From Escherichia phage BUCT618, in sequence record OM735461.1: DNA of 38,270 nucleotides; one strand, written 5' to 3'. The notes below the pieces were generated by a model. The model did not search any database, was not told the DNA's origin, and saw only the letters and a program-made list of their open reading frames with translations. Of this stretch, positions 20 to 38,258 are shown one piece after another (position 1 is the stretch's first letter; each line of letters starts with the position of its first letter). The translations under genes were made by a program, and so were the position numbers.

Positions 20-2389
20 TTACCATGCTGAAAGGTTGTAGCCGGTGACCAGGTTGTCAGAGATGGCGTCTAGCGTAGGGTCAACCTGGTCGTCGTGCTT
101 TCCGTTAGGGAATACGGAGAATTCACCGATGTAGGCAGGCATCCACGGAGCATCCTTCGGCAGGTGAACAAGGCCCGCCTCAATCTGCGGCAGAACATCC
201 AGGGCGCGGGTGAATTTATCCACCGAGCGCTGAATCGGGATTACCGGCACACCCTCCATTTTCAGCGTCTGAATCAGGCCGGTTCCGCTGGCCTTATCCT
301 CAATCTTCATTCCGCGAACAACGCCACGGTTAATGGGTGATTTGTGCAAATCCCAGAATGCGCGAGCCTGTTTTATGAGGTCCGGCGCCTCCCATTTACC
401 ACGAATCTGGTCGAGCAGATAGGCGTGGCCGTTTTTGAATCCCCAGCACTGGAATACAGACCAGTCGTTGTGCTCTTTTGTTTTGAGAGCGGTATCTGCG
501 TATATAACGCGATAATCCCACTCCGGGTGCACAAAGCTGTTGTCGTACCACTGCCACCAGCTGTCTTTGAAAAGGCCGCCGCCTTTCGGTGCAGGGCGCT
601 GCATGTACTGACCAGCGAATACGTAAGGGTTACTGGCCTCCATCTCTGCCAGCTTCTCACGTGAGTGCTTAAAGGGCCACAAGGCGGTGTCATCTGGGTT
701 TACGGCAGGGATACTAAGTACATGCCACTGCTCGCCATTTCCGCCAGCCTGTAGCCATCCTGCAAGGTCTTCCTCGTGGAGTCTCTGCATGATAACGATA
801 ATTGGCGTATCAGGGCTGTTCAGGCGTGATTCCATCGTGGTCTGGAACCAGTCAATGACATTCTGCCGCATGGTGTCAGAATTGGCCTCGCTTGCCTTAT
901 GCGGGTCATCAATTATGATACAGTTAGATACAACGGCACCTGTTTGTGATAATATGAAGTTGTTGTTATCTTCAACCCCTAAACAATAGGTTTCATCAAC
1001 ATGACCGATATACTCAACGAAACATGGCTGACCATCCCCAACACCAATGGGCTTTACGAGGTTTCCGATGCTGGAAATGTCAGAAGGACACGTCCCATCC
1101 GAGCGCTTAAGCCTTCTGTTGACTCCAAAGGATACTTGAGAGTCAACCTTTCCGTTGGCGGTAAGGTCACCTGCAAATACATCGCTCACCTTGTCGCTGA
1201 GAATTTTATAGGCGAAAGGCCCCATAAGAATGAGGTTAGGCACCTGGACGGGAACCCCATGAATAACACCCTTAGCAATCTCGCGTATGGCACTAAGTCC
1301 GACAACATGCAGGACGCTTTGCGGCATGGAACATTCCCCGTGCTCGAAAGAAGACCAGGAGCAGTCCTCGACAGAGTAAAGGTTGTTGAAATATTCCAGA
1401 GCGCCGATGATGCTAAAACTCTCGCTGCCAGGTACGGAGTTAGCGTCGGGGTTATCAGGCAGATCAAACTCAGACAGACATGGCGTAGCGTCACGAATGG
1501 ATTGCCTGATGCTCGGTGGAATGCAAAGCCAAAGCACTCGAAGGAAGTGATAAAAATCGCCATCGACCGGCGCTACAGCAGGGAAGAGGCTTGCAGACTC
1601 ACCGGACTTTCTTTGCACCAGATTAAGAGGCTTCGCAAGATGAATGGCGGAGACCCATCCGGCATCGGTTAATATTTCATGATCAGGAGTGCACTCAAAT
1701 GAAGACCCATCATCAAAGTGCACTCTTATAATGTCATTGCCAGGGTTTACCCACTTGTGAGTGATCCGCTTAACTTCAGCAACCTGATTATTCTCATTGA
1801 ATGAGTTTACCTCCATGACACCGCTGTGGATTATGTCATAGATGGATAGCTCTCCGTCAGGAGTGGAAATAATCTGGCTAGCTGGGAAGCAACCGCCGAA
1901 GCCTTCACGCAGTTTACCTGCGCCATACCCTGTGATAGTCCCGTCCGAACCGGTGGCATAGACGCAGCCGCCGGTTTTGGTGCGCCACTCGTCTTTAGCC
2001 TTAGCGTCCGGCATCATGCCGATGTCGCCGAATACGGCACGGTACTCTTCAGACATGGCAATGGCGCGGGCCTGGTAGGTGTTATTTGCTGCAAGGCGCT
2101 TGGAGTAGCTGGCGTGGATAAATTCGCAGTCAGGATAGTTCCCGATAGCCCAGGCCATGAAGTTGACCACAGCAAGCTCGGTCTTTGAGTAGCGAGGGGG
2201 GATATTGATAATCAGGCGTTTGTACTGTCCGATAAAGCACCGCTCGAGCGCCTCGCAGATTTTCGCATGATGCCAGTTCTCCACAAAGTCAAAGCCCTTG
2301 CGGGCCTTGAACATGTATTTGGAAAACTCAAGCAGGTCACATCGCAGGGTAGCGATGTCGTCGGCGGAAAGTTTAATCTCTTGAGCCAT
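20..2389 (-). CDS. terL: Terminase large subunit, interrupted in frame by an intein (extein about 466 aa)
   Basis: 789-aa ORF. N-extein has Walker A-like IPPRYSKT and ends GAGKLREGFGG; C-extein starts CIIIDDPHKA (Walker B-like) and carries QYMQRP and acidic nuclease-type residues. Lies immediately downstream of terS with a 17-nt overlap. Confidence 0.85.
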   Translation of the reverse strand: MAQEIKLSADDIATLRCDLLEFSKYMFKARKGFDFVENWHHAKICEALERCFIGQYKRLIINIPPRYSKTELAVVNFMAWAIGNYPDCEFIHASYSKRLAANNTYQARAIAMSEEYRAVFGDIGMMPDAKAKDEWRTKTGGCVYATGSDGTITGYGAGKLREGFGGCFPASQIISTPDGELSIYDIIHSGVMEVNSFNENNQVAEVKRITHKWVNPGNDIIRVHFDDGSSFECTPDHEILTDAGWVSAIHLAKPLNLVQRKSGESASLFPAVAPVDGDFYHFLRVLWLCIPPSIRQSIRDATPCLSEFDLPDNPDANSVPGSESFSIIGALEYFNNLYSVEDCSWSSFEHGECSMPQSVLHVVGLSAIREIAKGVIHGVPVQVPNLILMGPFAYKILSDKVSDVFAGDLTANGKVDSQVSFGVNRRLKRSDGTCPSDISSIGNLVKPIGVGDGQPCFVEYIGHVDETYCLGVEDNNNFILSQTGAVVSNCIIIDDPHKASEANSDTMRQNVIDWFQTTMESRLNSPDTPIIVIMQRLHEEDLAGWLQAGGNGEQWHVLSIPAVNPDDTALWPFKHSREKLAEMEASNPYVFAGQYMQRPAPKGGGLFKDSWWQWYDNSFVHPEWDYRVIYADTALKTKEHNDWSVFQCWGFKNGHAYLLDQIRGKWEAPDLIKQARAFWDLHKSPINRGVVRGMKIEDKASGTGLIQTLKMEGVPVIPIQRSVDKFTRALDVLPQIEAGLVHLPKDAPWMPAYIGEFSVFPNGKHDDQVDPTLDAISDNLVTGYNLSAW
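923..1891 (-). mobile_element. Intein within terL (residues C167 to N489, 323 aa)
   Basis: N-terminal Hint blocks CFPASQIISTPDGELSIYDI and ECTPDHEILTDAGW (TxxH); C-terminal blocks ETYCLGVEDNNNFILSQTGAVVSN followed by +1 Cys. The central ~210 residues are low complexity with no endonuclease motif in this frame. Confidence 0.7.
1001..1672 (+). CDS. HNH homing endonuclease (NUMOD4-like N-terminus, HNH_3-like core, C-terminal helix-turn-helix repeats), encoded antisense inside the terL intein
   Basis: 223-aa ORF with ETWLTIPNTNGLYEVSDAGNVRR, KGYLRVNLSVGGK, HLVAENFIGERPHKNEVRHLDGNPMNNTLSNLAYGTKSDN, then two HTH-like segments. No strong Shine-Dalgarno upstream. Confidence 0.8.
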   Translation: MTDILNETWLTIPNTNGLYEVSDAGNVRRTRPIRALKPSVDSKGYLRVNLSVGGKVTCKYIAHLVAENFIGERPHKNEVRHLDGNPMNNTLSNLAYGTKSDNMQDALRHGTFPVLERRPGAVLDRVKVVEIFQSADDAKTLAARYGVSVGVIRQIKLRQTWRSVTNGLPDARWNAKPKHSKEVIKIAIDRRYSREEACRLTGLSLHQIKRLRKMNGGDPSGIG

Positions 2390-3809: not shown

Positions 3810-3971
3810 CATTATATTGATGATTCTCAATCACTGCTCTGCGTGGGGGTGTGGGTGAGAGTCATCGAGGCCTCGCCTCCACCCTGTCCCGTAAAGCAGG
3901 GTTTGAGGTTATCATATTTTTTTTATAAAGTCAATAGATGAGAGGCAAAAAACAAAGTATAAAATTAGTGT

Positions 3972-4000
3972 TTGACATAATCACACCAGGCGGGTAGATT
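3972..4000 (+). promoter_or_regulatory. Candidate early promoter
   Basis: TTGACA, 17-bp spacer, TAGATT; the first ORF starts at 4026 with AGGAG RBS. Shares the 15-mer TAGTGTTTGACATAA with the promoter at 32286. Confidence 0.5.
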
Positions 4001-4025: not shown

Positions 4026-4265
4026 ATGACCAACGAATCAATGAAAGAGTACGAAGAAATCCAGCAGCGCCTTATGGATGAGTTCATTAACAACATCTCA
4101 CCGTGGATTGACTGGGTTGGCATGTCTGGTTTTGAAGAAACAATGGCCCGCTCTGCAGTTCGCAGCCTTATCAGCCTTTCTTATTATGAAGGCACGATGA
4201 ATGGCATTCGTGTCATGCAGCAGAATATGAAGGAGTTCCATGATGATGCAATGCGTGACCGTTGA
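4026..4265 (+). CDS. Hypothetical protein (79 aa)
   Basis: First ORF after the promoter, with RBS. Confidence 0.5.
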   Translation: MTNESMKEYEEIQQRLMDEFINNISPWIDWVGMSGFEETMARSAVRSLISLSYYEGTMNGIRVMQQNMKEFHDDAMRDR

Positions 4266-7314: not shown

Positions 7315-7320
7315 TTGTGG

Positions 7321-7348
7321 TTGACATTATTCAGTGAAGTGGTAAGGT
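7321..7348 (+). promoter_or_regulatory. Candidate promoter upstream of the SF2 helicase
   Basis: TTGACA, 16-bp spacer, TAAGGT; shares TGTGGTTGACATTA with the site at 35020. Confidence 0.4.
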
Positions 7349-7376: not shown

Positions 7377-9143
7377 ATGAAGCAGCCACGATTTTACCAA
7401 ACAGAAGCAAAGGAGGCGGTGATTCACCGCATCCGTGAGAACTCGAAGAAAGGAGTCGCCAGCAGGATACTTGTTGATGCGGCGGCTGGTGCAGGGAAAA
7501 CCATCATGATGGCGATCATTGCCAAACACGTACATGAGCGAGGAGGGCGAGTATTGCAGATTGCGCGTCAGCCAATACTTGCCGAGCAGACCTATCGTGA
7601 GTTCTATGATTTTTCAGTACCGGCGGGGATGTACGCCGCAAAGTTCAATAAGCGCCAGGTATATCAGGTTACCGTAGGCACTGAGGGCACGATTGTTAAT
7701 GGCCTTGCTGACTTCAATAAACCGGTTGATTTGCTTCTTATCGACGAATCGCATCAGGTAGACATTGAGAACGAAGACACGCAATTCATGCGCATAATCA
7801 ATCATCTGGATGGAGTTTCGAAAAAAGCCGGTCGCCTTATGCATATCGTAGGAGTAACAGGTTCTCCATTCCGTGGAACCGCCCACCTTACCACGTTCGA
7901 CTTCTGGCAGGAGGTTGTTTACGACATCGGCGTCGACCGACTGACTGAGATGGGGTTCCTGTCGGTTCCCGTCTATGGGTTCCCTGATGCTGACGATGAC
8001 TCCCTGGATTTCTCCAGCGTGGATACTCGCAGCGGCTCATGGGAGTTCAGCGAAAAGGAACTCGACGAAATCGCCATGTCTGACGCTGGAAAGAAAAAAC
8101 TTGTGCGTATTCTGATGCAGGTCATTGAAAAGACCAAAGACCGGAACCAGCGGATAGTCTTTGCATCGACCAAGCGACACGCCAGGGAGATTCGGCGAAT
8201 CCTCATCGCACTGGGCATCGACAAGTCAAAGATTGGCCTTGTCACTGACGATTCCAGCGAGGCGGAGAAAGACCGCGTAATCAAGCTATCGAAGGAAGGA
8301 AAACTCGACTGGCTGATTAACGTGTCGGTGCTGACTACTGGCTTTAACTCGCCACTGATTGACGTGGTTGTTTACCTGCGCCCGATTGGTTCACTGGTGT
8401 TACTGATTCAGTCTATGGGGCGCGGCGCTCGCTTGCTTGAGGAGTGGATGAAAGAGGCCGGTTTCCATAAAGATAACTATCTGGTTCTGGACTATGCCGG
8501 AGTATTCGACAGGCTTGGGCATTTGCTGGACGACCCGCTTACAGGTGCGGCACTAGCGGAAAAAGGGCGCAAGTCAGGGAAAACAAAGTTATGCCAGCGT
8601 GAAGGTTGCGGGTGCGAAAACGGAATAGGCGCTCGGCGCTGTATCGCAAAGGATCCATCAGAACCTGATGGAAGGTGCTCGTTCTTCTGGGTTTCGCAAA
8701 CATGCCCAGACTGCGGAACAGAAAACGATATAGCAGCTTCTGAGTGCCGCAATCCGAAGTGCAAGCGTGAACTGCGTGACCCTAACAAAGAGCTTTTGCA
8801 TTCCCCATATTCTGATGACCAGCTTGTTGAGGTTAAATCATGGGAGATTACGCCAGCAGAAAACGGAAATGGCATCATGGTTAAGTTCAATCTTAAGGAT
8901 GAGCCAGAGCACGGCAACCCGGTTGTTTTTTATCCCACCGATAGCGAAGGGGCTAAGCGAATAACAATGAAACAGTTCATTGAGGTCTACTGCAGGAATC
9001 CTCGATGGCATCCAGAGTTTAAAGCGCAATTAAATCCACGTGGAATCATGAAATTAAAGCAGGCGTTAACCATGCCATCGCATATCTCTTACCGGATTAA
9101 CGGGCAAAACAAATTTGTTATCGGAAGAAGGCGCTTCTCATGA
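7377..9143 (+). CDS. Superfamily 2 DNA helicase with C-terminal cysteine-rich zinc-finger region
   Basis: Walker A DAAAGAGKT, DESH box LLLIDESHQV, motif III TGSPFR, motif VI QSMGRGAR; several C-x2-C pairs in the C-terminal third. Confidence 0.8.
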   Translation: MKQPRFYQTEAKEAVIHRIRENSKKGVASRILVDAAAGAGKTIMMAIIAKHVHERGGRVLQIARQPILAEQTYREFYDFSVPAGMYAAKFNKRQVYQVTVGTEGTIVNGLADFNKPVDLLLIDESHQVDIENEDTQFMRIINHLDGVSKKAGRLMHIVGVTGSPFRGTAHLTTFDFWQEVVYDIGVDRLTEMGFLSVPVYGFPDADDDSLDFSSVDTRSGSWEFSEKELDEIAMSDAGKKKLVRILMQVIEKTKDRNQRIVFASTKRHAREIRRILIALGIDKSKIGLVTDDSSEAEKDRVIKLSKEGKLDWLINVSVLTTGFNSPLIDVVVYLRPIGSLVLLIQSMGRGARLLEEWMKEAGFHKDNYLVLDYAGVFDRLGHLLDDPLTGAALAEKGRKSGKTKLCQREGCGCENGIGARRCIAKDPSEPDGRCSFFWVSQTCPDCGTENDIAASECRNPKCKRELRDPNKELLHSPYSDDQLVEVKSWEITPAENGNGIMVKFNLKDEPEHGNPVVFYPTDSEGAKRITMKQFIEVYCRNPRWHPEFKAQLNPRGIMKLKQALTMPSHISYRINGQNKFVIGRRRFS

Positions 9144-14669: not shown

Positions 14670-15023
14670 TCAGAGTGATGAGCTGAAAATCTCGCCATCA
14701 TCGGTGATTCCTTCAAATTCGCATGTGGCAATAGCTGAATCAGTATTAACCGCAACCTCAATCCTTGTAAGCTCAATGGCCCCAGGGGTGCTCATAATCA
14801 CATCACGGATAATCTGCTTCTTGGCGGCAATGCTAACCTGTGGGCTTACCATGTCGGTAAGCCACGGCATTCCGATTCTGTTGTCGTCGAAAACCTCACC
14901 CTGAATAAGTTGGAGTGAGAACTTACTATCCTGAGACGTCATGGCTGCATCTTCAATGATGCCAATATCATCGGTGATGACAAGGTCCCATGAATTTCTA
15001 TCAAGTTCGAAATCGCTTCTCAT
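14670..15023 (-). CDS. Baseplate wedge protein (gp25/GPW-like)
   Basis: 117 aa, located between J-like and spike-like genes. Confidence 0.5.
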   Translation of the reverse strand: MRSDFELDRNSWDLVITDDIGIIEDAAMTSQDSKFSLQLIQGEVFDDNRIGMPWLTDMVSPQVSIAAKKQIIRDVIMSTPGAIELTRIEVAVNTDSAIATCEFEGITDDGEIFSSSL

Positions 15024-28145: not shown

Positions 28146-28991
28146 TCAGAACTCAATTACATTACTTGCGTAGCAGCGGCAGTTTATTGCCTGCCCTGGA
28201 AAAGTATCGCGAGCACCAGCACCATCTGACCAGTTATACGTCTTGCCGTTACGCGCATAGTGCGATGGTTTGGCTTTCGGGTATCGGCCTGATGGGTTTC
28301 CTCGCACCCGCTGGTCTTCCATCGTGCGCCATACGAATTGCTTGATTTCCAGGTCTGCCGCACGTTGCTTTGTTACCTGCATATTCATAGTGGCGACCTG
28401 GTCACGGGCAATCAGGTCGGCGCGTCGTTTAGCAACCCCGGTTTCGGCCCGAATGTTTTTGCTGATGTCGCGCCATGACAGGCCATCGCGAAATCCAGAG
28501 TTAACGGCAGTTGTAATCTTGCTCAGGTAGCTTTGCGTCAGATTGGTAATCAGCGCAGTATTTTCCTCAGCCCATGCGTCAATATTTGCGCTCATGTCAG
28601 TTCCTGGCAATGCCACGTTGACGCCAATGGCCTGGTTGATTGCTTTCTGCCAGTTACCATCAATTGCCGAACGAATAGAATCGCCAATGTTGCGCACGAA
28701 TGACAGTCCCGGAATATTACCCGTTGCCAGTGAGCGAATAGCTCGCAGAACAGCAGACAGGTCATCAACCCGATAACCATCCTCACGCGCCGCAATCTCT
28801 GCTTTTAATTCATCAGCGATGCGGGTTTTCAGCTCGGCATTAATGCCGTCAATGATGCCGCGCAGCATCTTCGCGTACTGCTGTTCAATCCGTACAGGGT
28901 GACGGGCTGGCAGCAGAACCTTACGCTTCCGCTTGTCAGGCTTCAGTGCTTCCAGTTGTTTCTGAAATTCCGTTTGTGCCATTTTCGCCAC
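28146..28991 (-). CDS. Head morphogenesis protein (Mu F / SPP1 gp7 family)
   Basis: C-terminal FVWRTMEDQRVRGNP ... GQAINCRCY signature. Confidence 0.75.
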   Translation of the reverse strand: MAKMAQTEFQKQLEALKPDKRKRKVLLPARHPVRIEQQYAKMLRGIIDGINAELKTRIADELKAEIAAREDGYRVDDLSAVLRAIRSLATGNIPGLSFVRNIGDSIRSAIDGNWQKAINQAIGVNVALPGTDMSANIDAWAEENTALITNLTQSYLSKITTAVNSGFRDGLSWRDISKNIRAETGVAKRRADLIARDQVATMNMQVTKQRAADLEIKQFVWRTMEDQRVRGNPSGRYPKAKPSHYARNGKTYNWSDGAGARDTFPGQAINCRCYASNVIEF

Positions 28992-30303
28992 CGAGTGAGT
29001 TAAGACCTAACGGATCCTGTTCTTCTTCATCCTCCGGCAATTCTTCCAGCGAGAACAGGCCAGTATCGTTGGCCAGATTGCGCACCTCGTTAGGCGTGAG
29101 CGCAGCAGATTGCTCAAGCGTTGAAATTGCCGTCGCTACCGATGCCATCGAGGTTGCTTTCTTGTCTGGTGACATCGCACTAAGTTCTGCCCACCGCCAG
29201 TCGAAGTCCAGTCCGGTCTGCATCTTCACGTTATCAATGCATGACTGCACCAGCGCAGACGGATCGCCTTCCTGAATCGCGGCAATCTTGTCGTAGTAAA
29301 CCGACAGGATTTCCTCCTGGCTGGCATTCAGCCCTGCAGGAGATTTCCCGAACAGCATCATTTCGGAAAGGCCAGTCGCGCCAGCTACCGCAGTGGCAAA
29401 GCGGTCAACGAAGTCGGGGATTCCCTGGAGTGATCGGTTAACGAACTCGAATGACTCTTCCTTATCGACAACCGCCGCCCGGTAGATTGACTTACCCTGG
29501 TTGAAGGCGTTTGCACGGTTCATTACTGCCTGCGATGCCGTCATCCCCATTGATTGCGCAGCTGTCAGGTTAGGCACGGAAAGAATGCCAACCCCTGACT
29601 CTTTCAGCAGGAATGAAGCATCCTGTAATGTCTCGTTGTATGCGGCAATTGCCGACCATGCCATCGCAACATAAGAGCCACCCCATCCCTGCAGTTCAAT
29701 CTGGGTATCGTAAGGAACCGGGCAGCCATAGAAAGGCGCAATGCGGTCGCGGTGATACGTCACGCCGTTGCGAGCCACATAATTCAGTGCACGCCCATAA
29801 TGCGGGGACTCAGGGTCAAGGTCGATTTCATCAACACTTAATGACCAGCGGTCGAGCGGCACCAGGTCAATGATGGCCGCCGTTTCTGATGGGGGTGATT
29901 CTGGCGGGCGAGAATCGTCGTAAACCTTCAGCACGCCAGCACCACCGAACAGGCGTGACCAGGCGATACCCTTGCGAACTGCCGCGCGCAGACCAATCTC
30001 ATCAAGCATGGTTTCAACGCGCTTTTTGTCCTCACCATCCAGACCGGTGATTTCGATAAACTTGCGTGTCGCATCCTCTGCGGGGAGGTCGCAGATTTTA
30101 CGCGCCAGCCAGTCCGACAAATAGATGTTAGTCAGCACCTGCTGATTGTTGTGCATCAGGTGCGCAAATGCAGGAGACAGAACTTGCCCGAGGCTCTTGT
30201 CGATGCCAGGAATACCCTGCCCGGATATTGGGTTAGCCCACGCATCAACGCGGTAAGACATGCTGCCGTCATTATGCAGCTTGAGGTGGGGCTTCTTAGC
30301 CAT
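28936..30303 (-). CDS. Portal protein
   Basis: 455 aa immediately upstream of the Mu F-like gene; acidic C-terminal tail; RBS GAGGG. Confidence 0.65.
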   Translation of the reverse strand: MAKKPHLKLHNDGSMSYRVDAWANPISGQGIPGIDKSLGQVLSPAFAHLMHNNQQVLTNIYLSDWLARKICDLPAEDATRKFIEITGLDGEDKKRVETMLDEIGLRAAVRKGIAWSRLFGGAGVLKVYDDSRPPESPPSETAAIIDLVPLDRWSLSVDEIDLDPESPHYGRALNYVARNGVTYHRDRIAPFYGCPVPYDTQIELQGWGGSYVAMAWSAIAAYNETLQDASFLLKESGVGILSVPNLTAAQSMGMTASQAVMNRANAFNQGKSIYRAAVVDKEESFEFVNRSLQGIPDFVDRFATAVAGATGLSEMMLFGKSPAGLNASQEEILSVYYDKIAAIQEGDPSALVQSCIDNVKMQTGLDFDWRWAELSAMSPDKKATSMASVATAISTLEQSAALTPNEVRNLANDTGLFSLEELPEDEEEQDPLGLNSLGGENGTNGISETTGSTEA

Positions 30304-32105: not shown

Positions 32106-32285
32106 AAAAACCTCATTATTAAGTTTTGGCTCGATTTCGCTCTAGCGGGTTCGTCGTGGCATACTTGCCTGTCGGCGATGCCCCGCTTCCTATCCAGGAA
32201 AGCGAAGCCAATTTAACATATAAAAAAGCAAAAGTCAAAAGAAGGAGCACAAAATGACGCTGGTGGAAATAGATTGTTATAGTGT

Positions 32286-32313
32286 TTGACATAAGGCATA
32301 GATGCGGTAAGAT
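32286..32313 (+). promoter_or_regulatory. Candidate early promoter for the right-hand plus-strand block
   Basis: TTGACA, 16-bp spacer, TAAGAT; shares TAGTGTTTGACATAA with the promoter at 3972. Confidence 0.5.
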
Positions 32314-32343: not shown

Positions 32344-32649
32344 ATGAAAGAGTTTAAAGGTACGCCTGGGCCGTGGGTTGCAGATAAGACATCTCGCGCG
32401 ATAGGCCCAATTAGCCATGATGATGACCAGTCTTACGGAATTTTAATTCCTGTTGCCTGGGTGGAGTTTGACCAAGATGAGGGGATTAAGGCGTCAAACC
32501 AACGCCTCATCGCTGCAGCGCCTGAGTTGCTGGAGGCCTTGAAGAAAATGGTCAGCAAAGCGTATAAGCAAAACTGGAATGATGCATACCCAGAAGAGAT
32601 TCAATCAGCACAGGCAGCAATCAACAAAGCACTGGGAGAAAAACAATGA
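32344..32649 (+). CDS. Hypothetical protein (101 aa)
   Basis: First ORF after the promoter. Confidence 0.5.
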   Translation: MKEFKGTPGPWVADKTSRAIGPISHDDDQSYGILIPVAWVEFDQDEGIKASNQRLIAAAPELLEALKKMVSKAYKQNWNDAYPEEIQSAQAAINKALGEKQ

Positions 32650-34408: not shown

Positions 34409-34726
34409 ATGCCAAACAGGATGAACATGTCTACAGTCGAAGAGCGGCTAACGAAAGTTGAGACGAATCTTGCGAACCTTGCAGATGCACAAAGGGATGT
34501 TAGCCAGGCTTTAAACAAGGTGTCTGAGTCCATCCACGCCATCCAGATTAGCATTGAGCGCCAGAACGCGAGTATTCATCAGATAGTTGAGTTGCGTCGT
34601 GATGTTGATGCAATGTCGAAGGATGTGGATAAGCTAAAAGGCAAGGTGTGGTGGTTAGGCGGCGTGGCAGCCGCCTGTACTTTCATTATCGTGAACTTCT
34701 CGCGCATGAAAGACTTCTTTCACTGA
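34409..34726 (+). CDS. Coiled-coil protein with C-terminal transmembrane anchor (XhlA-like architecture)
   Basis: Start placed at ATG 34409 after a purine-rich RBS; the ORF-track upstream extension is unlikely to be coding. Confidence 0.5.
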   Translation: MPNRMNMSTVEERLTKVETNLANLADAQRDVSQALNKVSESIHAIQISIERQNASIHQIVELRRDVDAMSKDVDKLKGKVWWLGGVAAACTFIIVNFSRMKDFFH

Positions 34727-34849
34727 TGCGGATTATATCCATGTCGCGCATGGTTGCATGACGTGCGCGGGCGAAGTAGTATCGCGCGAATGTGAATCCA
34801 TAGCGGCGCAATCCGCCAGCAAATCCCCACCGTTCAATCAGCCACCATT

Positions 34850-34981
34850 TCATTTCATCCTCCCCAGATAGAAGCATACTCCCGCCGCACTGAGATATAT
34901 TGCCGCTGAAATATCGCGGTTGATAGCTGCCGAGAATATTGCCGACAGCACCAGGAAAAGCATTGGCATCCACTTGATCAT
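34850..34981 (-). CDS. Small hydrophobic protein (43 aa), divergent from the 35027 promoter
   Basis: ATG with GAGGGG RBS 7 nt upstream; MIKWMPMLFLVLSAIFSAAINRDISAAIYLSAAGVCFYLGRMK. Confidence 0.3.
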   Translation of the reverse strand: MIKWMPMLFLVLSAIFSAAINRDISAAIYLSAAGVCFYLGRMK

Positions 34982-35026
34982 TTTTTTACCCCTCATCATA
35001 TTTCGCCTCAAATCCACAGATTGTGG

Positions 35027-35054
35027 TTGACATTACCATGATACATGGTAACCT
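35027..35054 (+). promoter_or_regulatory. Candidate promoter with overlapping palindromic operator
   Basis: TTGACA at 35027-35032; palindrome TTACCATG-ATA-CATGGTAA at 35033-35051 covers the spacer and -10 region. Confidence 0.4.
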
Positions 35055-35079
35055 TATCCATATCAACACGGGAGGTAGT

Positions 35080-35196
35080 ATGAATCAGCAGAAATTTGAA
35101 TCAGCACAACGGGCGGCAAGACTGGCAGTTAAGTGTAGAAGCAAAGGCGCATGGAAAGAGGCGATGCGCCTGCTTCGGGAGGCTATTTATGCTTGA
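35080..35196 (+). CDS. Small basic protein (38 aa)
   Basis: ATG after GGGAGG RBS; stop overlaps the next start (ATGCTTGA). Confidence 0.3.
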   Translation: MNQQKFESAQRAARLAVKCRSKGAWKEAMRLLREAIYA

Positions 35197-35335
35197 CCGT
35201 CATTGCCCAATCGACCGCGACGAACGCATCCACGCCGACAGCTGGCAGGATGAGCCAACAGAGGAAGATATTGAGCGCCAGCGCTCAATCATCGAAGCAC
35301 AGGCAGACTTAGAGGAGATGTACAATGGCTGGTGA
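35189..35335 (+). CDS. Small acidic protein (48 aa)
   Basis: ATG start inside ORF-track entry 35096-35335, coupled to the upstream small ORF. Confidence 0.35.
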   Translation: MLDRHCPIDRDERIHADSWQDEPTEEDIERQRSIIEAQADLEEMYNGW

Positions 35336-35501
35336 ATTTGCAGTTTACACATCGGTAGCTGTCGGCGGGAAGAGTGGCCGACAAACCAAGCAAGAAACAC
35401 GCGAGCAGGTCATCGCTCGCAATAGTTTCCCTGGTCCAGACCAGAATCGTTACATTGATAAGTTTTTAGCGGAGCAGAAGAAAAATGAGCAACTGGCATA
35501 A
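35325..35501 (+). CDS. Small protein (58 aa)
   Basis: ATG overlaps the upstream stop; below the ORF-track length cutoff. Confidence 0.3.
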   Translation: MAGEFAVYTSVAVGGKSGRQTKQETREQVIARNSFPGPDQNRYIDKFLAEQKKNEQLA

Positions 35502-35568
35502 CGAACACATCATGCAGTGGCATCGCCGTCGCATTAAGTCAATCATTAACCCTTGTGAGGTTTAACAA

Positions 35569-35955
35569 ATGGCAAAAACTACATATAGTCGAGAAGAACT
35601 TGAGCGCCAACTAGCAGAATCACGCCGCGAGTTCTGGGCAGCAGACGCTACCATTAGCAATCTTGAAATGAAGCTCGCAGACATGGCGGCACAGCTCGCT
35701 AACGCAGAGAACAAGTGCGCAGCGCCGGTATCTGTGCCTGCTGAGCGTGCAGCATTTGAAACCTTCATGGAGAAACGCTTTAAAGACCTTATCGACCGTC
35801 GCCTGGTGAAGAATGGTGATGGTGAATACTTCGCGTGGGACATGCAGGTTGCATGGATTGTCTGGCAAGAGCGCGCCGCTATGCTTAAGTGCTCCGAACC
35901 TGTAACGGACAACACGAATCAGCAATTCGAATCTCTAAGCAGAGGCGACAAATGA
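35569..35955 (+). CDS. Hypothetical protein (128 aa)
   Basis: ORF with GTGAGG RBS. Confidence 0.5.
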   Translation: MAKTTYSREELERQLAESRREFWAADATISNLEMKLADMAAQLANAENKCAAPVSVPAERAAFETFMEKRFKDLIDRRLVKNGDGEYFAWDMQVAWIVWQERAAMLKCSEPVTDNTNQQFESLSRGDK

Positions 35956-36356
35956 ACGGAAAAATAGCACTTCGCGACATCATAAAAGCAATTGTTATTC
36001 TTAAACCTGGCGTTACGATGGCGGTAATTCAGCGGATGATATGGACAAAAACACCAAGCGCAACAATTGGGACGGCGCTGCACTGCATGTCAGCACAAGG
36101 GTTATTTACGACAAGGAGGGTTGAAAACAAAGGAAGGCGAGGATTCAAATGCAATGCCTACTATCCAACGAAGAAGCTACTGGACTCGTTCACGGTTACG
36201 AGCGAGATGCGGGAGTATCTTGGGCTGACGGATGGCGACCTTAACCCAGGGAAGGTGAAGCGCAAGTGCAACACTGTCTTTGAGTCATGTAAACAAAGCC
36301 CGGCAACGAAACGCATCCTTTGGTTTTATGGGCGCGGTGAATTGCCAGCCATCTGA
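35952..36356 (+). CDS. Hypothetical protein (134 aa)
   Basis: Start placed at ATG 35952 (ATGA overlap) rather than ORF-track start 35889. Confidence 0.5.
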   Translation: MNGKIALRDIIKAIVILKPGVTMAVIQRMIWTKTPSATIGTALHCMSAQGLFTTRRVENKGRRGFKCNAYYPTKKLLDSFTVTSEMREYLGLTDGDLNPGKVKRKCNTVFESCKQSPATKRILWFYGRGELPAI

Positions 36357-36395
36357 TTGGTTAAGCGAGGTTATGACGATTATGGAGAAGTTTCG

Positions 36396-38258
36396 ATGAT
36401 TACAAATGATGGTGTTAAGTTAATTCATGGTGATTGCCTGGAGGTGCTGAAGGGAATGCCAGACAATTCCGTGGATAGCATAGTCACAGACCCGCCTTAT
36501 GGACTTTCATTCATGGGGAAGAAATGGGACTACGAAGTTCCTGACCAGGCTATCTGGGAGGAATGCCTACGCGTCCTTAAGCCTGGTGGTCATCTGCTGG
36601 CCTTTGCTGGTACACGAACGCAGCACCGCATGGCTGTTCGCATTGAGGACGCTGGGTTCGAGATACGGGACATGATTGCATGGGTATATGGCAGCGGGTT
36701 TCCTAAAAGTGCGAACGTTTCAAAGCAGATAGACCAGCAAGAAAGAAACAGATGGGTTAAAATCATCAAGGCGATTGATAAAACAAACCTTTCTGAAATG
36801 GCTGAACTATGGATAAACTCAAGAAATGCGAATGCTGCGGGGCTTTCATTCCAAAGGAATCAAACCGAAGCTGGGCTCAATACGCAAAAAAACGGTTTTG
36901 CTCACGGAAGTGTTCTGCTTCAAGTCAGTCACAAAAACTGCGATGCGCTTGCAGTCATTGCGGAACTAAATTCGACCGAAGCCCATCCCACAAGCGAGGG
37001 GAATTGCAGTTCTGCACAATCGAATGCCGAAAGCACTATCACGGCATCGAAAAGCCATGCGACCACTGCGGAAAAATCACCAGAAAACCGCGAAGCAACG
37101 CTGTGCATGGTGGATTTTTCTGCTCTACACAGTGCATGGGGCTGGCAAGGCGAAAGCAGGGCGGACAAACTCAAGGCCGTCGAAGCCCTGAAGATTTGGC
37201 TTGGAAGAAAGCCATCCTCAAGGCGGGAGGCTACAAGTGCGCTATGTGCGGCACTGACAGACGACTTGAAGCGCATCACGTTAAGCCAATCAAAGACTTT
37301 CCTGAGCTACGACACGACACGTCAAATGGCTTGTGCGTCTGCCATCAGTGCCACTATTACGGAATCCACGGCGGCAAGCCTAATTTCATTCACGGCAGGT
37401 ACTCTAAAAAGTAAGGCCATCGACAAGGCGGCTGGTGCGGAGCGCGAGGTGGTCGGCAGCTACGAGGTGACTCGCGACATGTCTGGCGGATCATGGGCGG
37501 AACTTCACGGAAAACCGAACAGCGCCAAGATGCACAACATAACCGCACCAGCCACCGACGCCGCAAAACAGTGGCAAGGCTGGGGTACAGCCCTAAAGCC
37601 AGCACTTGAACCAATCACCGTAGCACGCAAGCCGTTCAAAGGCACTGTGGCGGCTAACGTGATGGAGTGGGGAACGGGGGCGCTGAATATTGATGGGTGC
37701 AGGGTGGTGGGGGATGTTTGGACTAGAAGAACACCTTATAAAGACAACATCAAAGGCGGACAGCTTCACGCCGCAAAAAGTGAATCAACCTACGCATGCG
37801 GCCCTCAATCTTGCAATGAATTGGGGCGCTGGCCCGCGAACCTGATTCACGACGGAAGCCATGAGGTGATGTCGGAGTTTCCTGCAAATGTTGTCGCGAA
37901 CGGAGGTAGCGGCGTATTTAACCAGCACGCATGGATGCGCTACGAGACGCCGCAGAACATCAATCGCAGCAAAGGCAGCGCAGCTCGCTTCTTCTACTGC
38001 GCTAAGGCCAGCAAGAAAGACCGAGGCGAAGGTAATAACCACCCTACCGTCAAGCCAACCGACCTCATGGCGTACCTTTGCCGCCTTGTAACGCCTCCTG
38101 GTGGCGTGGTTCTCGACCCGTTCATGGGCAGCGGTAGCACCGGCAAGGCAGCCGTGCGCGAAGGCTTCCGCTTCATCGGCATTGAAATGGACGCGGAGTA
38201 CCTTGCAATCGCTGAGGCGAGAATTGCGCATGATGCAGGGAAGCAGACTGAGAAATAA
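36396..38258 (+). CDS. DNA N6-adenine / N4-cytosine methyltransferase (beta class) carrying a 630-nt in-frame insertion
   Basis: DPPY motif (SIVTDPPYG) near the N-terminus and FxGxG motif (DPFMGSGSTG) near the C-terminus. Start placed at ATG 36396 after GGAG (ORF track begins at TTG 36357). Residues about 140-350 are Ser/Thr/Ala-rich low complexity. Confidence 0.75.
   Translation: MITNDGVKLIHGDCLEVLKGMPDNSVDSIVTDPPYGLSFMGKKWDYEVPDQAIWEECLRVLKPGGHLLAFAGTRTQHRMAVRIEDAGFEIRDMIAWVYGSGFPKSANVSKQIDQQERNRWVKIIKAIDKTNLSEMAELWINSRNANAAGLSFQRNQTEAGLNTQKNGFAHGSVLLQVSHKNCDALAVIAELNSTEAHPTSEGNCSSAQSNAESTITASKSHATTAEKSPENREATLCMVDFSALHSAWGWQGESRADKLKAVEALKIWLGRKPSSRREATSALCAALTDDLKRITLSQSKTFLSYDTTRQMACASAISATITESTAASLISFTAGTLKSKAIDKAAGAEREVVGSYEVTRDMSGGSWAELHGKPNSAKMHNITAPATDAAKQWQGWGTALKPALEPITVARKPFKGTVAANVMEWGTGALNIDGCRVVGDVWTRRTPYKDNIKGGQLHAAKSESTYACGPQSCNELGRWPANLIHDGSHEVMSEFPANVVANGGSGVFNQHAWMRYETPQNINRSKGSAARFFYCAKASKKDRGEGNNHPTVKPTDLMAYLCRLVTPPGGVVLDPFMGSGSTGKAAVREGFRFIGIEMDAEYLAIAEARIAHDAGKQTEK
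36783..37412 (+). mobile_element. Putative in-frame insertion carrying the HNH gene, bounded by duplicated KAIDK codons
   Basis: AAGGCGATTGATAAA at 36768-36782 and AAGGCCATCGACAAG at 37413-37427 both encode K-A-I-D-K; the 630 nt between them is a multiple of three. Confidence 0.45.
36809..37414 (+). CDS. HNH endonuclease with three N-terminal zinc-ribbon repeats, nested in the +2 frame of the methyltransferase gene
   Basis: Three C-x2-C ... FC-x3-C repeats, then CAMCGTDRRLEAHHVKPIKDFPELRHDTSNGLCVCHQCH. Confidence 0.75.
   Translation: MDKLKKCECCGAFIPKESNRSWAQYAKKRFCSRKCSASSQSQKLRCACSHCGTKFDRSPSHKRGELQFCTIECRKHYHGIEKPCDHCGKITRKPRSNAVHGGFFCSTQCMGLARRKQGGQTQGRRSPEDLAWKKAILKAGGYKCAMCGTDRRLEAHHVKPIKDFPELRHDTSNGLCVCHQCHYYGIHGGKPNFIHGRYSKK

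Follow-up and report, generated by a model that had tools for sequence, protein, structure and literature searches.

In the immI region of phage P22, binding of Arc represses both Pant and Pmnt (PMC2724298). The locus described here resembles immI in its divergent, overlapping promoters of predicted sigma-70 type, in a dyad placed in the core promoter region and in the small genes that stand first in the operon, and immI, with the operator of the ribbon-helix-helix protein Arc between Pant and Pmnt, is its closest regulated analogue. In contrast to immI, no Arc-, Mnt- or ribbon-helix-helix-like protein was detected among the scanned proteins of the window (the whole stretch of 38,270 nt that was analysed), the dyad is found in one genome only, and there is no sign of an antirepressor or of an immunity function. 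Bacterial bidirectional promoters, as described by Warman, Grainger and colleagues, have a shared -10 element and divergent starts that lie 18 (also 10 or 23) bp apart (PMC12825309). As in that class, mRNA genes would be driven both ways from our locus. Assignment to the class was nevertheless ruled out: in place of a single shared -10 element there are two separate ones (35038-43 and 35049-54), each with a good -35 of its own, and the predicted starts are spaced by about 30 bp.

In phage lambda, whose PL, one of the strong early phage promoters used by the host RNA polymerase, reads GTGTTGACATAAATACC..., spacer and -10 carry conserved operators for CI and Cro. The window resembles lambda PL in a consensus TTGACAT -35 preceded by GTG, in a short leader, in several similar promoter copies per genome and in the predicted dependence on host sigma-70; unlike in lambda, the spacers are unconserved and no CI/Cro-like protein was found. 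As a whole, the genome recalls the PhiPLPE-like and PY100-like 'dwarf myoviruses' in its size of ~38 kb, and its best portal match is Yersinia phage PY100, a dwarf myovirus (PMC8309999), although this portal identity is ~40% and DNA similarity is limited to short mosaic patches.

Here, we analysed a 19-bp palindrome that a first-pass annotation had taken for the operator of a repressor-controlled genetic switch. Our preferred reading, which we hold with a probability of roughly three in four, is that of an ordinary divergent early-promoter region in which the palindrome is a genome-specific by-product, as opposed to a repressor site. The proposed operator and switch found no support, as the left arm of the palindrome is unconserved and the adjacent proteins match no DNA-binding family.

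Two interleaved predicted promoters

For comparison, we examined 33 related loci. When exact copies of the 38- and 43-aa proteins, encoded on either side of the promoters, were looked up, 10 metagenomic contigs sharing the gene order of the window were obtained, the longest of 30-39 kb. A scan for the promoter-core pattern, in which the 8-nt left arm of the palindrome was left free, brought in 18 more true relatives out of collections of viral, metagenome and genome sequences (one contig, present in two of the collections, is counted twice), and five further loci, reached via a 134-aa protein encoded downstream, carry the same promoter core. A viral-contig protein search with the 48-aa protein led to the same five contigs as the DNA pattern, indicating that the sample is not biased by the use of that pattern. 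Matches of the pattern on five Bacteroides-type contigs (L028, L032, L037, L040 and L044) were chance hits on unrelated DNA and were left out. The 134-aa protein has homologues in 290 clusters, every one metagenomic, with 46.5 kb as the longest contig listed. The longest related contigs measure 36-46 kb and none of the related contigs lies within a bacterial chromosome; a tblastn search of phage records with the 38-aa protein gave no match.

Read directly, the rightward promoter P_R has the layout TTGACA-16-TG-n-TAACCT. Its extended -35 motif GTGGTTGACAT (35023-35033, plus strand; hexamer TTGACA at 35027-35032) is invariant in all relatives, with a nucleotide diversity of 0 in the 10 genomes ascertained by protein. 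Further downstream on the same strand follow a TG (35046-35047) and the -10 hexamer TAACCT (35049-35054; spacer 16 nt), of which T1, A2 and T6 are invariant; among the relatives, the hexamer reads TAATCT in 17 and TAACCT in 6. TAACCT agrees with the consensus at only three of six positions, and P_R would rely on the TG and the perfect -35.

The leftward promoter P_L, found by a promoter scan as TTGATA-17-TATCAT with 10 of 12 matches, lies on the minus strand. Its -35 hexamer TTGATA (35061-35066) is invariant in 24 of 24 distinct contexts, in columns that had been free in the search pattern. Its -10 hexamer TATCAT (35038-35043), which is TATTAT in most relatives, keeps T1-A2-T3 and T6 throughout, whereas position 4 can be T, C or G. 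A Shine-Dalgarno sequence for the first rightward gene, GGAGG (35071-35075, plus strand, 5 nt before the ATG at 35080), is likewise invariant in relatives. In both promoters the hexamers are 16-18 nt apart, the -10 has A2 and T6, and the hexamers are conserved with a variable spacer among relatives, as is typical of sigma-70 promoters. Almost all invariant columns belong to -35, -10, TG or Shine-Dalgarno elements of P_R or P_L; the exceptions, for which we see no canonical promoter role, are C35044, A35045, G35048 and the GTGG at 35023-35026. A generic promoter scan of the region returned 10 sites against 8.5 in shuffled sequences, which is no excess, and the promoter case thus rests on conservation. 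From this pattern we infer that the region is a conserved pair of divergent, host-type sigma-70 promoters, as predicted from sequence.

P_R is one of four members of a promoter family with the layout GTGNTTGACAT-N14/15-GTA(A)G. The motif GTGNTTGACAT occurs four times in the window (3968, 7317, 32282 and 35023) against 0.23 expected, a count reached in none of 100 shuffles, and every copy lies on the plus strand, 57-60 nt upstream of a gene start. The sister promoters are GTGTTTGACAT...TAAGAT (32282-32313) before the gene starting at 32344, GTGTTTGACAT...TAGATT (3968-4000) before the gene starting at 4026, and GTGGTTGACAT...TAAGGT (7317-7348) before the helicase gene starting at 7377. In relatives, their -35 and T1, A2 and T6 of their -10 are fixed while their spacers vary freely, which is how plain promoters without operators behave. 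By eye, we found no dyad-symmetric element common to the four promoters. The sister promoters resemble lambda PL and PR (GGCGG before the -10); those spacer bases vary among relatives.

Could a regulator act on the conserved core itself? In such a case, the GTG(G) before the -35 elements and the CA..G in ATACATGG would be contacted by a conserved factor, of phage or host origin, through which all four GTGNTTGACAT promoters are controlled, so that the region would be regulated and the palindrome irrelevant to it. This idea draws on the extended motif, which is common to the four promoters and invariant in relatives beyond the canonical hexamers, and on the conserved 134-aa protein as a possible DNA binder. 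Bases adjoining the -35 and -10 are, however, equally compatible with selection on promoter strength or with common ancestry of the promoters, and the varying sister spacers, the missing common dyad and a DNA-binding assignment of the 134-aa protein that is not significant all speak against it. We consider a family-wide regulator of this kind unlikely.

Returning to a pair of ordinary promoters, we propose that a pair of divergent early transcription units would be controlled jointly from this region, in a ~38-kb phage that shows no sign of lysogeny. P_R, with a predicted start near 35061, would drive the genes for the 38-, 48-, 58- and 134-aa proteins and a methyltransferase, and P_L, with a predicted start near 35031, those for the 43- and 55-aa proteins. 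The two -10 hexamers are separated by 5 bp, and the predicted start of each promoter lies within or beside the -35 of the other. Given the known footprint of RNA polymerase, one bound polymerase should therefore exclude a second one. The promoters would compete for RNA polymerase, and their relative strengths would set the ratio of leftward to rightward transcription. The locus may thus offer a natural example of two strong promoters that are interleaved enough to compete, with a geometry unlike that of the bidirectional class with a shared -10. Together, the four GTGNTTGACAT promoters and the leftward one form a predicted early-promoter map that helps to annotate the transcription units of a phage family known from metagenomes.

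The palindrome and its variable left arm

The palindrome itself, TTACCATG-ATA-CATGGTAA, is a perfect 8+3+8 dyad at 35033-35051 (no strand), precisely where the first-pass annotation had placed it, and the TTGACA directly 5' of it, which had been called a -35 element, turned out to belong to the strongly conserved predicted promoter P_R, which the palindrome overlaps. The palindrome spans the whole P_L -10 and half of that of P_R. The right arm (CA-TG-G-TAA) is made up of the extended -10 of P_R and the first half of its -10 hexamer, the P_L -10 begins at the central ATA, and the left arm sits within the P_R spacer; the P_L -10 spans the centre and the inner end of the left arm. Perfect 8+8 inverted repeats with spacers of 0-6 nt number six in the whole 38,270-nt window against 4.2 +/- 2.6 in dinucleotide-preserving shuffles, and are thus not in excess. 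A scan of the whole genome revealed no second copy of the palindrome within three mismatches; further operator copies, as a regulon or cooperative sites would have, were hence not seen.

Across the 33 related loci, TTGTGGTTGACAT, the ATA with the right arm CATGGTAA (ATACATGGTAA) and CATATCAACACGGGAGG change little or not at all. For the left arm, 15 loci have TAAACATA and 8 have TGAACATA, and TGAATACA, TAACAAGA, TAACCATA, TGACCATA and TTAACATA occur at one locus each. The left arm TTACCATG was found in 0 of the 33, and none of them has the perfect palindrome. When about 20 distinct relatives were scored against the ideal arm, matches of 3, 3, 4, 5 (13 times) and 6 (three times) of 8 positions were obtained; a full match is confined to the window. 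The bases that complete the palindrome are minority alleles, with T35034 present in 2, C35036 in 4 and G35040 in 1 of 24 distinct contexts. Over the 10 distinct genomes ascertained by protein, nucleotide diversity is 0 at 35021-35033 and at 35041-35051, but 0.30 in the left arm (35034-35040), compared with 0.20-0.23 at third and 0.005-0.04 at second codon positions of the two downstream genes. Constraint on the left arm therefore does not exceed that on third codon positions, whereas the right arm shows no variation. An operator kept in relatives with the same neighbouring genes, which would have favoured the earlier claim, is consequently not observed: the left arm matches at 3-6 of 8 positions elsewhere and changes no more slowly than third codon positions do. 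The first-pass annotation had named a palindrome unconserved in relatives, together with adjacent proteins that do not bind DNA, as grounds for refutation, and as far as computation can tell both apply here.

How, then, could a perfect palindrome arise over a promoter pair? In our preferred reading it would be a by-product of promoter symmetry plus three variant bases (T35034, C35036 and G35040) in the weakly constrained P_R spacer, and we infer that it has no function. Perfect palindromes over promoters can come from promoter symmetry and drift, and relatives separate such cases from true operators. As found, the palindrome has no support as a functional element, and in that regard the finding matters little.

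The opposite view would be that the perfect palindrome is a new site, specific to this lineage, for a dimeric protein, which might be the 134-, 38- or 58-aa phage protein or a host factor. By analogy to Arc at Pant and Pmnt of P22, binding would shut both overlapping promoters. The perfection of the palindrome and its position over the full P_L -10 and half of the P_R -10 fit this view. So does the fact that all three differences from the family consensus raise complementarity, which is unlikely for one given genome: by our own calculation, three random substitutions in an 8-nt arm would do so with a chance of about 1 in 1500. On the other hand, the palindrome is present in no relative, the same neighbouring proteins are encoded beside other left arms, the site occurs once in this genome, and 8+8 palindromes occur at chance frequency. 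On balance, a site of this kind appears very improbable. The palindrome might also have originated in one step, through a template-switch 'correction' of the 5/8 quasi-palindrome of the family. In an informal comparison, the dyad had no convincing match to the sites of the host regulators CRP, LexA and Fur or of the GntR/PdhR type.

A structural role of the palindrome was considered as well, be it as a cruciform or as a stem-loop that would serve a transcript as terminator, processing site or stabiliser. An 8-bp stem with a 3-nt loop does appear in the minimum-energy fold of both strands. Its folding energy is, however, ordinary (z = -0.85 and -0.89), the hairpin is missing in relatives (z = +1.4 and +0.3), no T-run lies 3' of it, no Rfam family matches, and by the predicted starts neither transcript would hold the entire palindrome. 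We regard such a role as having a next to negligible probability, and the ordinary promoter pair stays our reading of the site.

Several observations on arms and spacers stand beside this argument. The half-site TTACCATG has six copies in the window against about one expected, a number that none of 100 shuffles reached. Two of the six are the palindrome itself; the others include positions 20, 24770 and 25459, and one lies within another perfect palindrome, an 8+5+8 dyad (GGCTTACC-ATGTC-GGTAAGCC, 14843-14863) inside a coding region. Since the spacings of the half-sites differ, their excess is probably due to chance. Matches to the palindrome on 11 viral contigs were chance finds on unrelated DNA without similarity to the window. 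The nearest relative, L018, is diverged by ~5-7% in the flanks and has an odd spacer of its own. Such odd spacer variants, some of which alter the leftward -10, cluster in genomes whose promoter is adjoined by the 43-aa gene and not by NinX: five distinct variants occur in genomes of the 43-aa type versus one among ~13 of the NinX type (compared were the window, L012, L018, L021, L043 and L050). The leftward promoter may have been retuned after loss of NinX.

Adjacent genes and candidate DNA-binding proteins

The divergent small ORFs listed in the first-pass annotation proved to be present as described, with a 43-aa hydrophobic ORF running leftwards (34850-34981) and overlapping ORFs of 38, 48 and 58 aa running rightwards (35080-35196, 35189-35335 and 35325-35501). 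Five of five small ORFs examined bear a coding signature, with diversities of 0.20-0.29 at third versus 0.005-0.06 at second codon positions, and are thus real genes. The first gene behind P_R (plus strand) encodes a basic helical 38-aa protein with a pI of 10.5 that belongs to PHROG 2180 and has codon-position diversities of 0.05/0.005/0.20; it is identical on eight other contigs, whose left arms differ. It overlaps by 8 nt with the gene for the acidic 48-aa protein (plus strand, pI 4.2), which also has a coding signature, shares 87-98% identity with its counterparts in relatives and has no family match in Pfam or PHROGs. The 58-aa protein that follows on the plus strand is assigned to PHROG 4684 and weakly matches DUF2737.

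On the left (minus strand), the first gene behind P_L in this genome encodes the 43-aa protein (GRAVY 1.12; coding signature 0.09/0.03/0.29), which is identical in L020 and L021. The promoter is flanked on this side either by a NinX-family gene, which in most relatives lies between the promoter and the 43-aa gene, or, as in the window, by the 43-aa gene directly. The next gene, for an arginine-rich 55-aa protein (34686-34853, minus strand; pI 11.4; coding signature 0.06/0.06/0.27), starts within the stop of the 43-aa gene (ATGA). Its 3' end overlaps by 41 nt with a convergent gene at 34409-34726 (plus strand), and within the overlap none of the three codon positions varies freely. The convergent gene encodes a coiled-coil protein of 105 aa that carries a membrane segment at its C-terminus and weakly matches PHROG families of holins and haemolysins (XhlA-like).

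Almost all relatives without the palindrome encode the neighbouring proteins at ~70-100% identity, and the 38- and 43-aa proteins are fully identical in several of them. With the same proteins standing beside differing left arms, no neighbouring protein varies with the palindrome.

None of the 38-, 43-, 48-, 55-, 58-, 128- and 134-aa proteins could be assigned to a DNA-binding family in Pfam or PHROGs. The earlier statement that no repressor-like protein was recognisable hence held, in that no helix-turn-helix or ribbon-helix-helix family matched any adjacent protein. Sequence searches of the PDB with the 38- and 58-aa proteins gave nothing. Structure prediction for such folds, which the annotation had suggested as a check, was no more favourable: the 58-aa protein, the best ribbon-helix-helix candidate, is modelled by AlphaFold (pLDDT 70) as two helices after a disordered N-terminus, with no strand. 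This model shows no ribbon-helix-helix or helix-turn-helix topology and has no structural match, although, being of a monomer, it could miss a strand that forms in the dimer only.

The remaining candidate is the 134-aa protein, a conserved basic protein encoded near the end of the rightward gene set (35952-36356, plus strand) and assigned to PHROG 142, 'Ren-like' (1.4e-7). Its model is of low confidence (pLDDT 48.8) and has the order helix-helix-helix-strand-strand; the Foldseek matches are all weak (E > 0.6) and uniformly winged-helix domains, and the best PDB profile match, an Lrs14-like regulator, is not significant at E = 0.097. Judging from these models, it is possible that the protein is a winged-helix DNA binder. 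If so, it would be the sole candidate transcription factor seen in the genome and might control late genes.

These protein data bear on a lineage-specific operator in both directions. The uniformly winged-helix matches of the 134-aa protein, non-significant as they are, would suit such a site, and the 38-, 55-, 58- and 134-aa proteins are all basic. Against it stand the lack of any helix-turn-helix or ribbon-helix-helix family match and the 58-aa model without such a topology. The 134-aa protein is 65-90% identical in relatives that lack the palindrome. In its most specific form, a recently evolved operator at which a dimeric protein (the 134-aa protein or a host regulator) would shut both promoters at once, the idea is in our view highly improbable, even a little more so than a new site as such. 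If true, a recent operator would mean an Arc-like switch in one lineage of a phage family that is otherwise without a recognisable repressor. We thus retain the reading of a promoter pair whose palindrome is incidental.

The first gene behind P_R deserves a separate remark. At least three strongly divergent versions of it occur (MNQQKF..., MKIKDF... and MNIKDK...; compared were 35080-35196 of the window and L023, L024, L027, L029, L030, L036 and L039), while promoter and leader are near identical. This suggests either that modules are exchanged at the conserved regulatory boundary or that the gene evolves rapidly.

Genome context

The window seems to comprise an entire phage genome, ~38 kb long and circularly permuted. 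Small and large terminase subunits are encoded, and a leftward block at ~11.5-30.3 kb contains, by position, the head and tail genes, among which the portal gene (28936-30303) and no other was confirmed. There are a lysis cassette with a GH108 endolysin and genes for replication and recombination, comprising DnaB, a DEAD-box helicase, VRR-NUC, RecT, a YqaJ-type exonuclease, SSB and DNA methyltransferases. A scan of ~30 non-structural proteins detected neither an integrase nor a repressor family.

Two genes of this genome are unusually long. The large terminase (20-2389, minus strand) has 789 aa versus ~466 aa in most relatives, L020 having 789 aa as well, and its residues 183-246 give a sub-threshold Intein_splicing match; the sequence suggests that the insertion may be an intein. 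The N6/N4 DNA methyltransferase (36357-38258, plus strand) has 633 aa, and its Pfam domain is split around a Ser/Thr/Ala-rich insertion of ~300 aa. At the same position, relatives have a methyltransferase of 375-466 aa or none, and the long form is absent among those compared.

Near-identical DNA in phage, plasmid and E. coli genome records is restricted to short mosaic patches, with no annotated relative. Two such patches, at 35473-35605 and 35720-35905, share 84-96% identity with siphophages of Salmonella and E. coli and with DUF551 genes of E. coli prophages, which suggests that the host is an enterobacterium and that mosaic exchange took place recently. In relatives, genes for HNH homing endonucleases are found at differing positions near the promoter (L015, 4744-5250; L050, 509-1015 and 1350-1859; L012, 3339-3839; L060, 1056-2009). 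One insertion follows the 43-aa gene, another separates the 38- and 48-aa genes and the others lie further downstream, which marks the region as a hot spot for such insertions.
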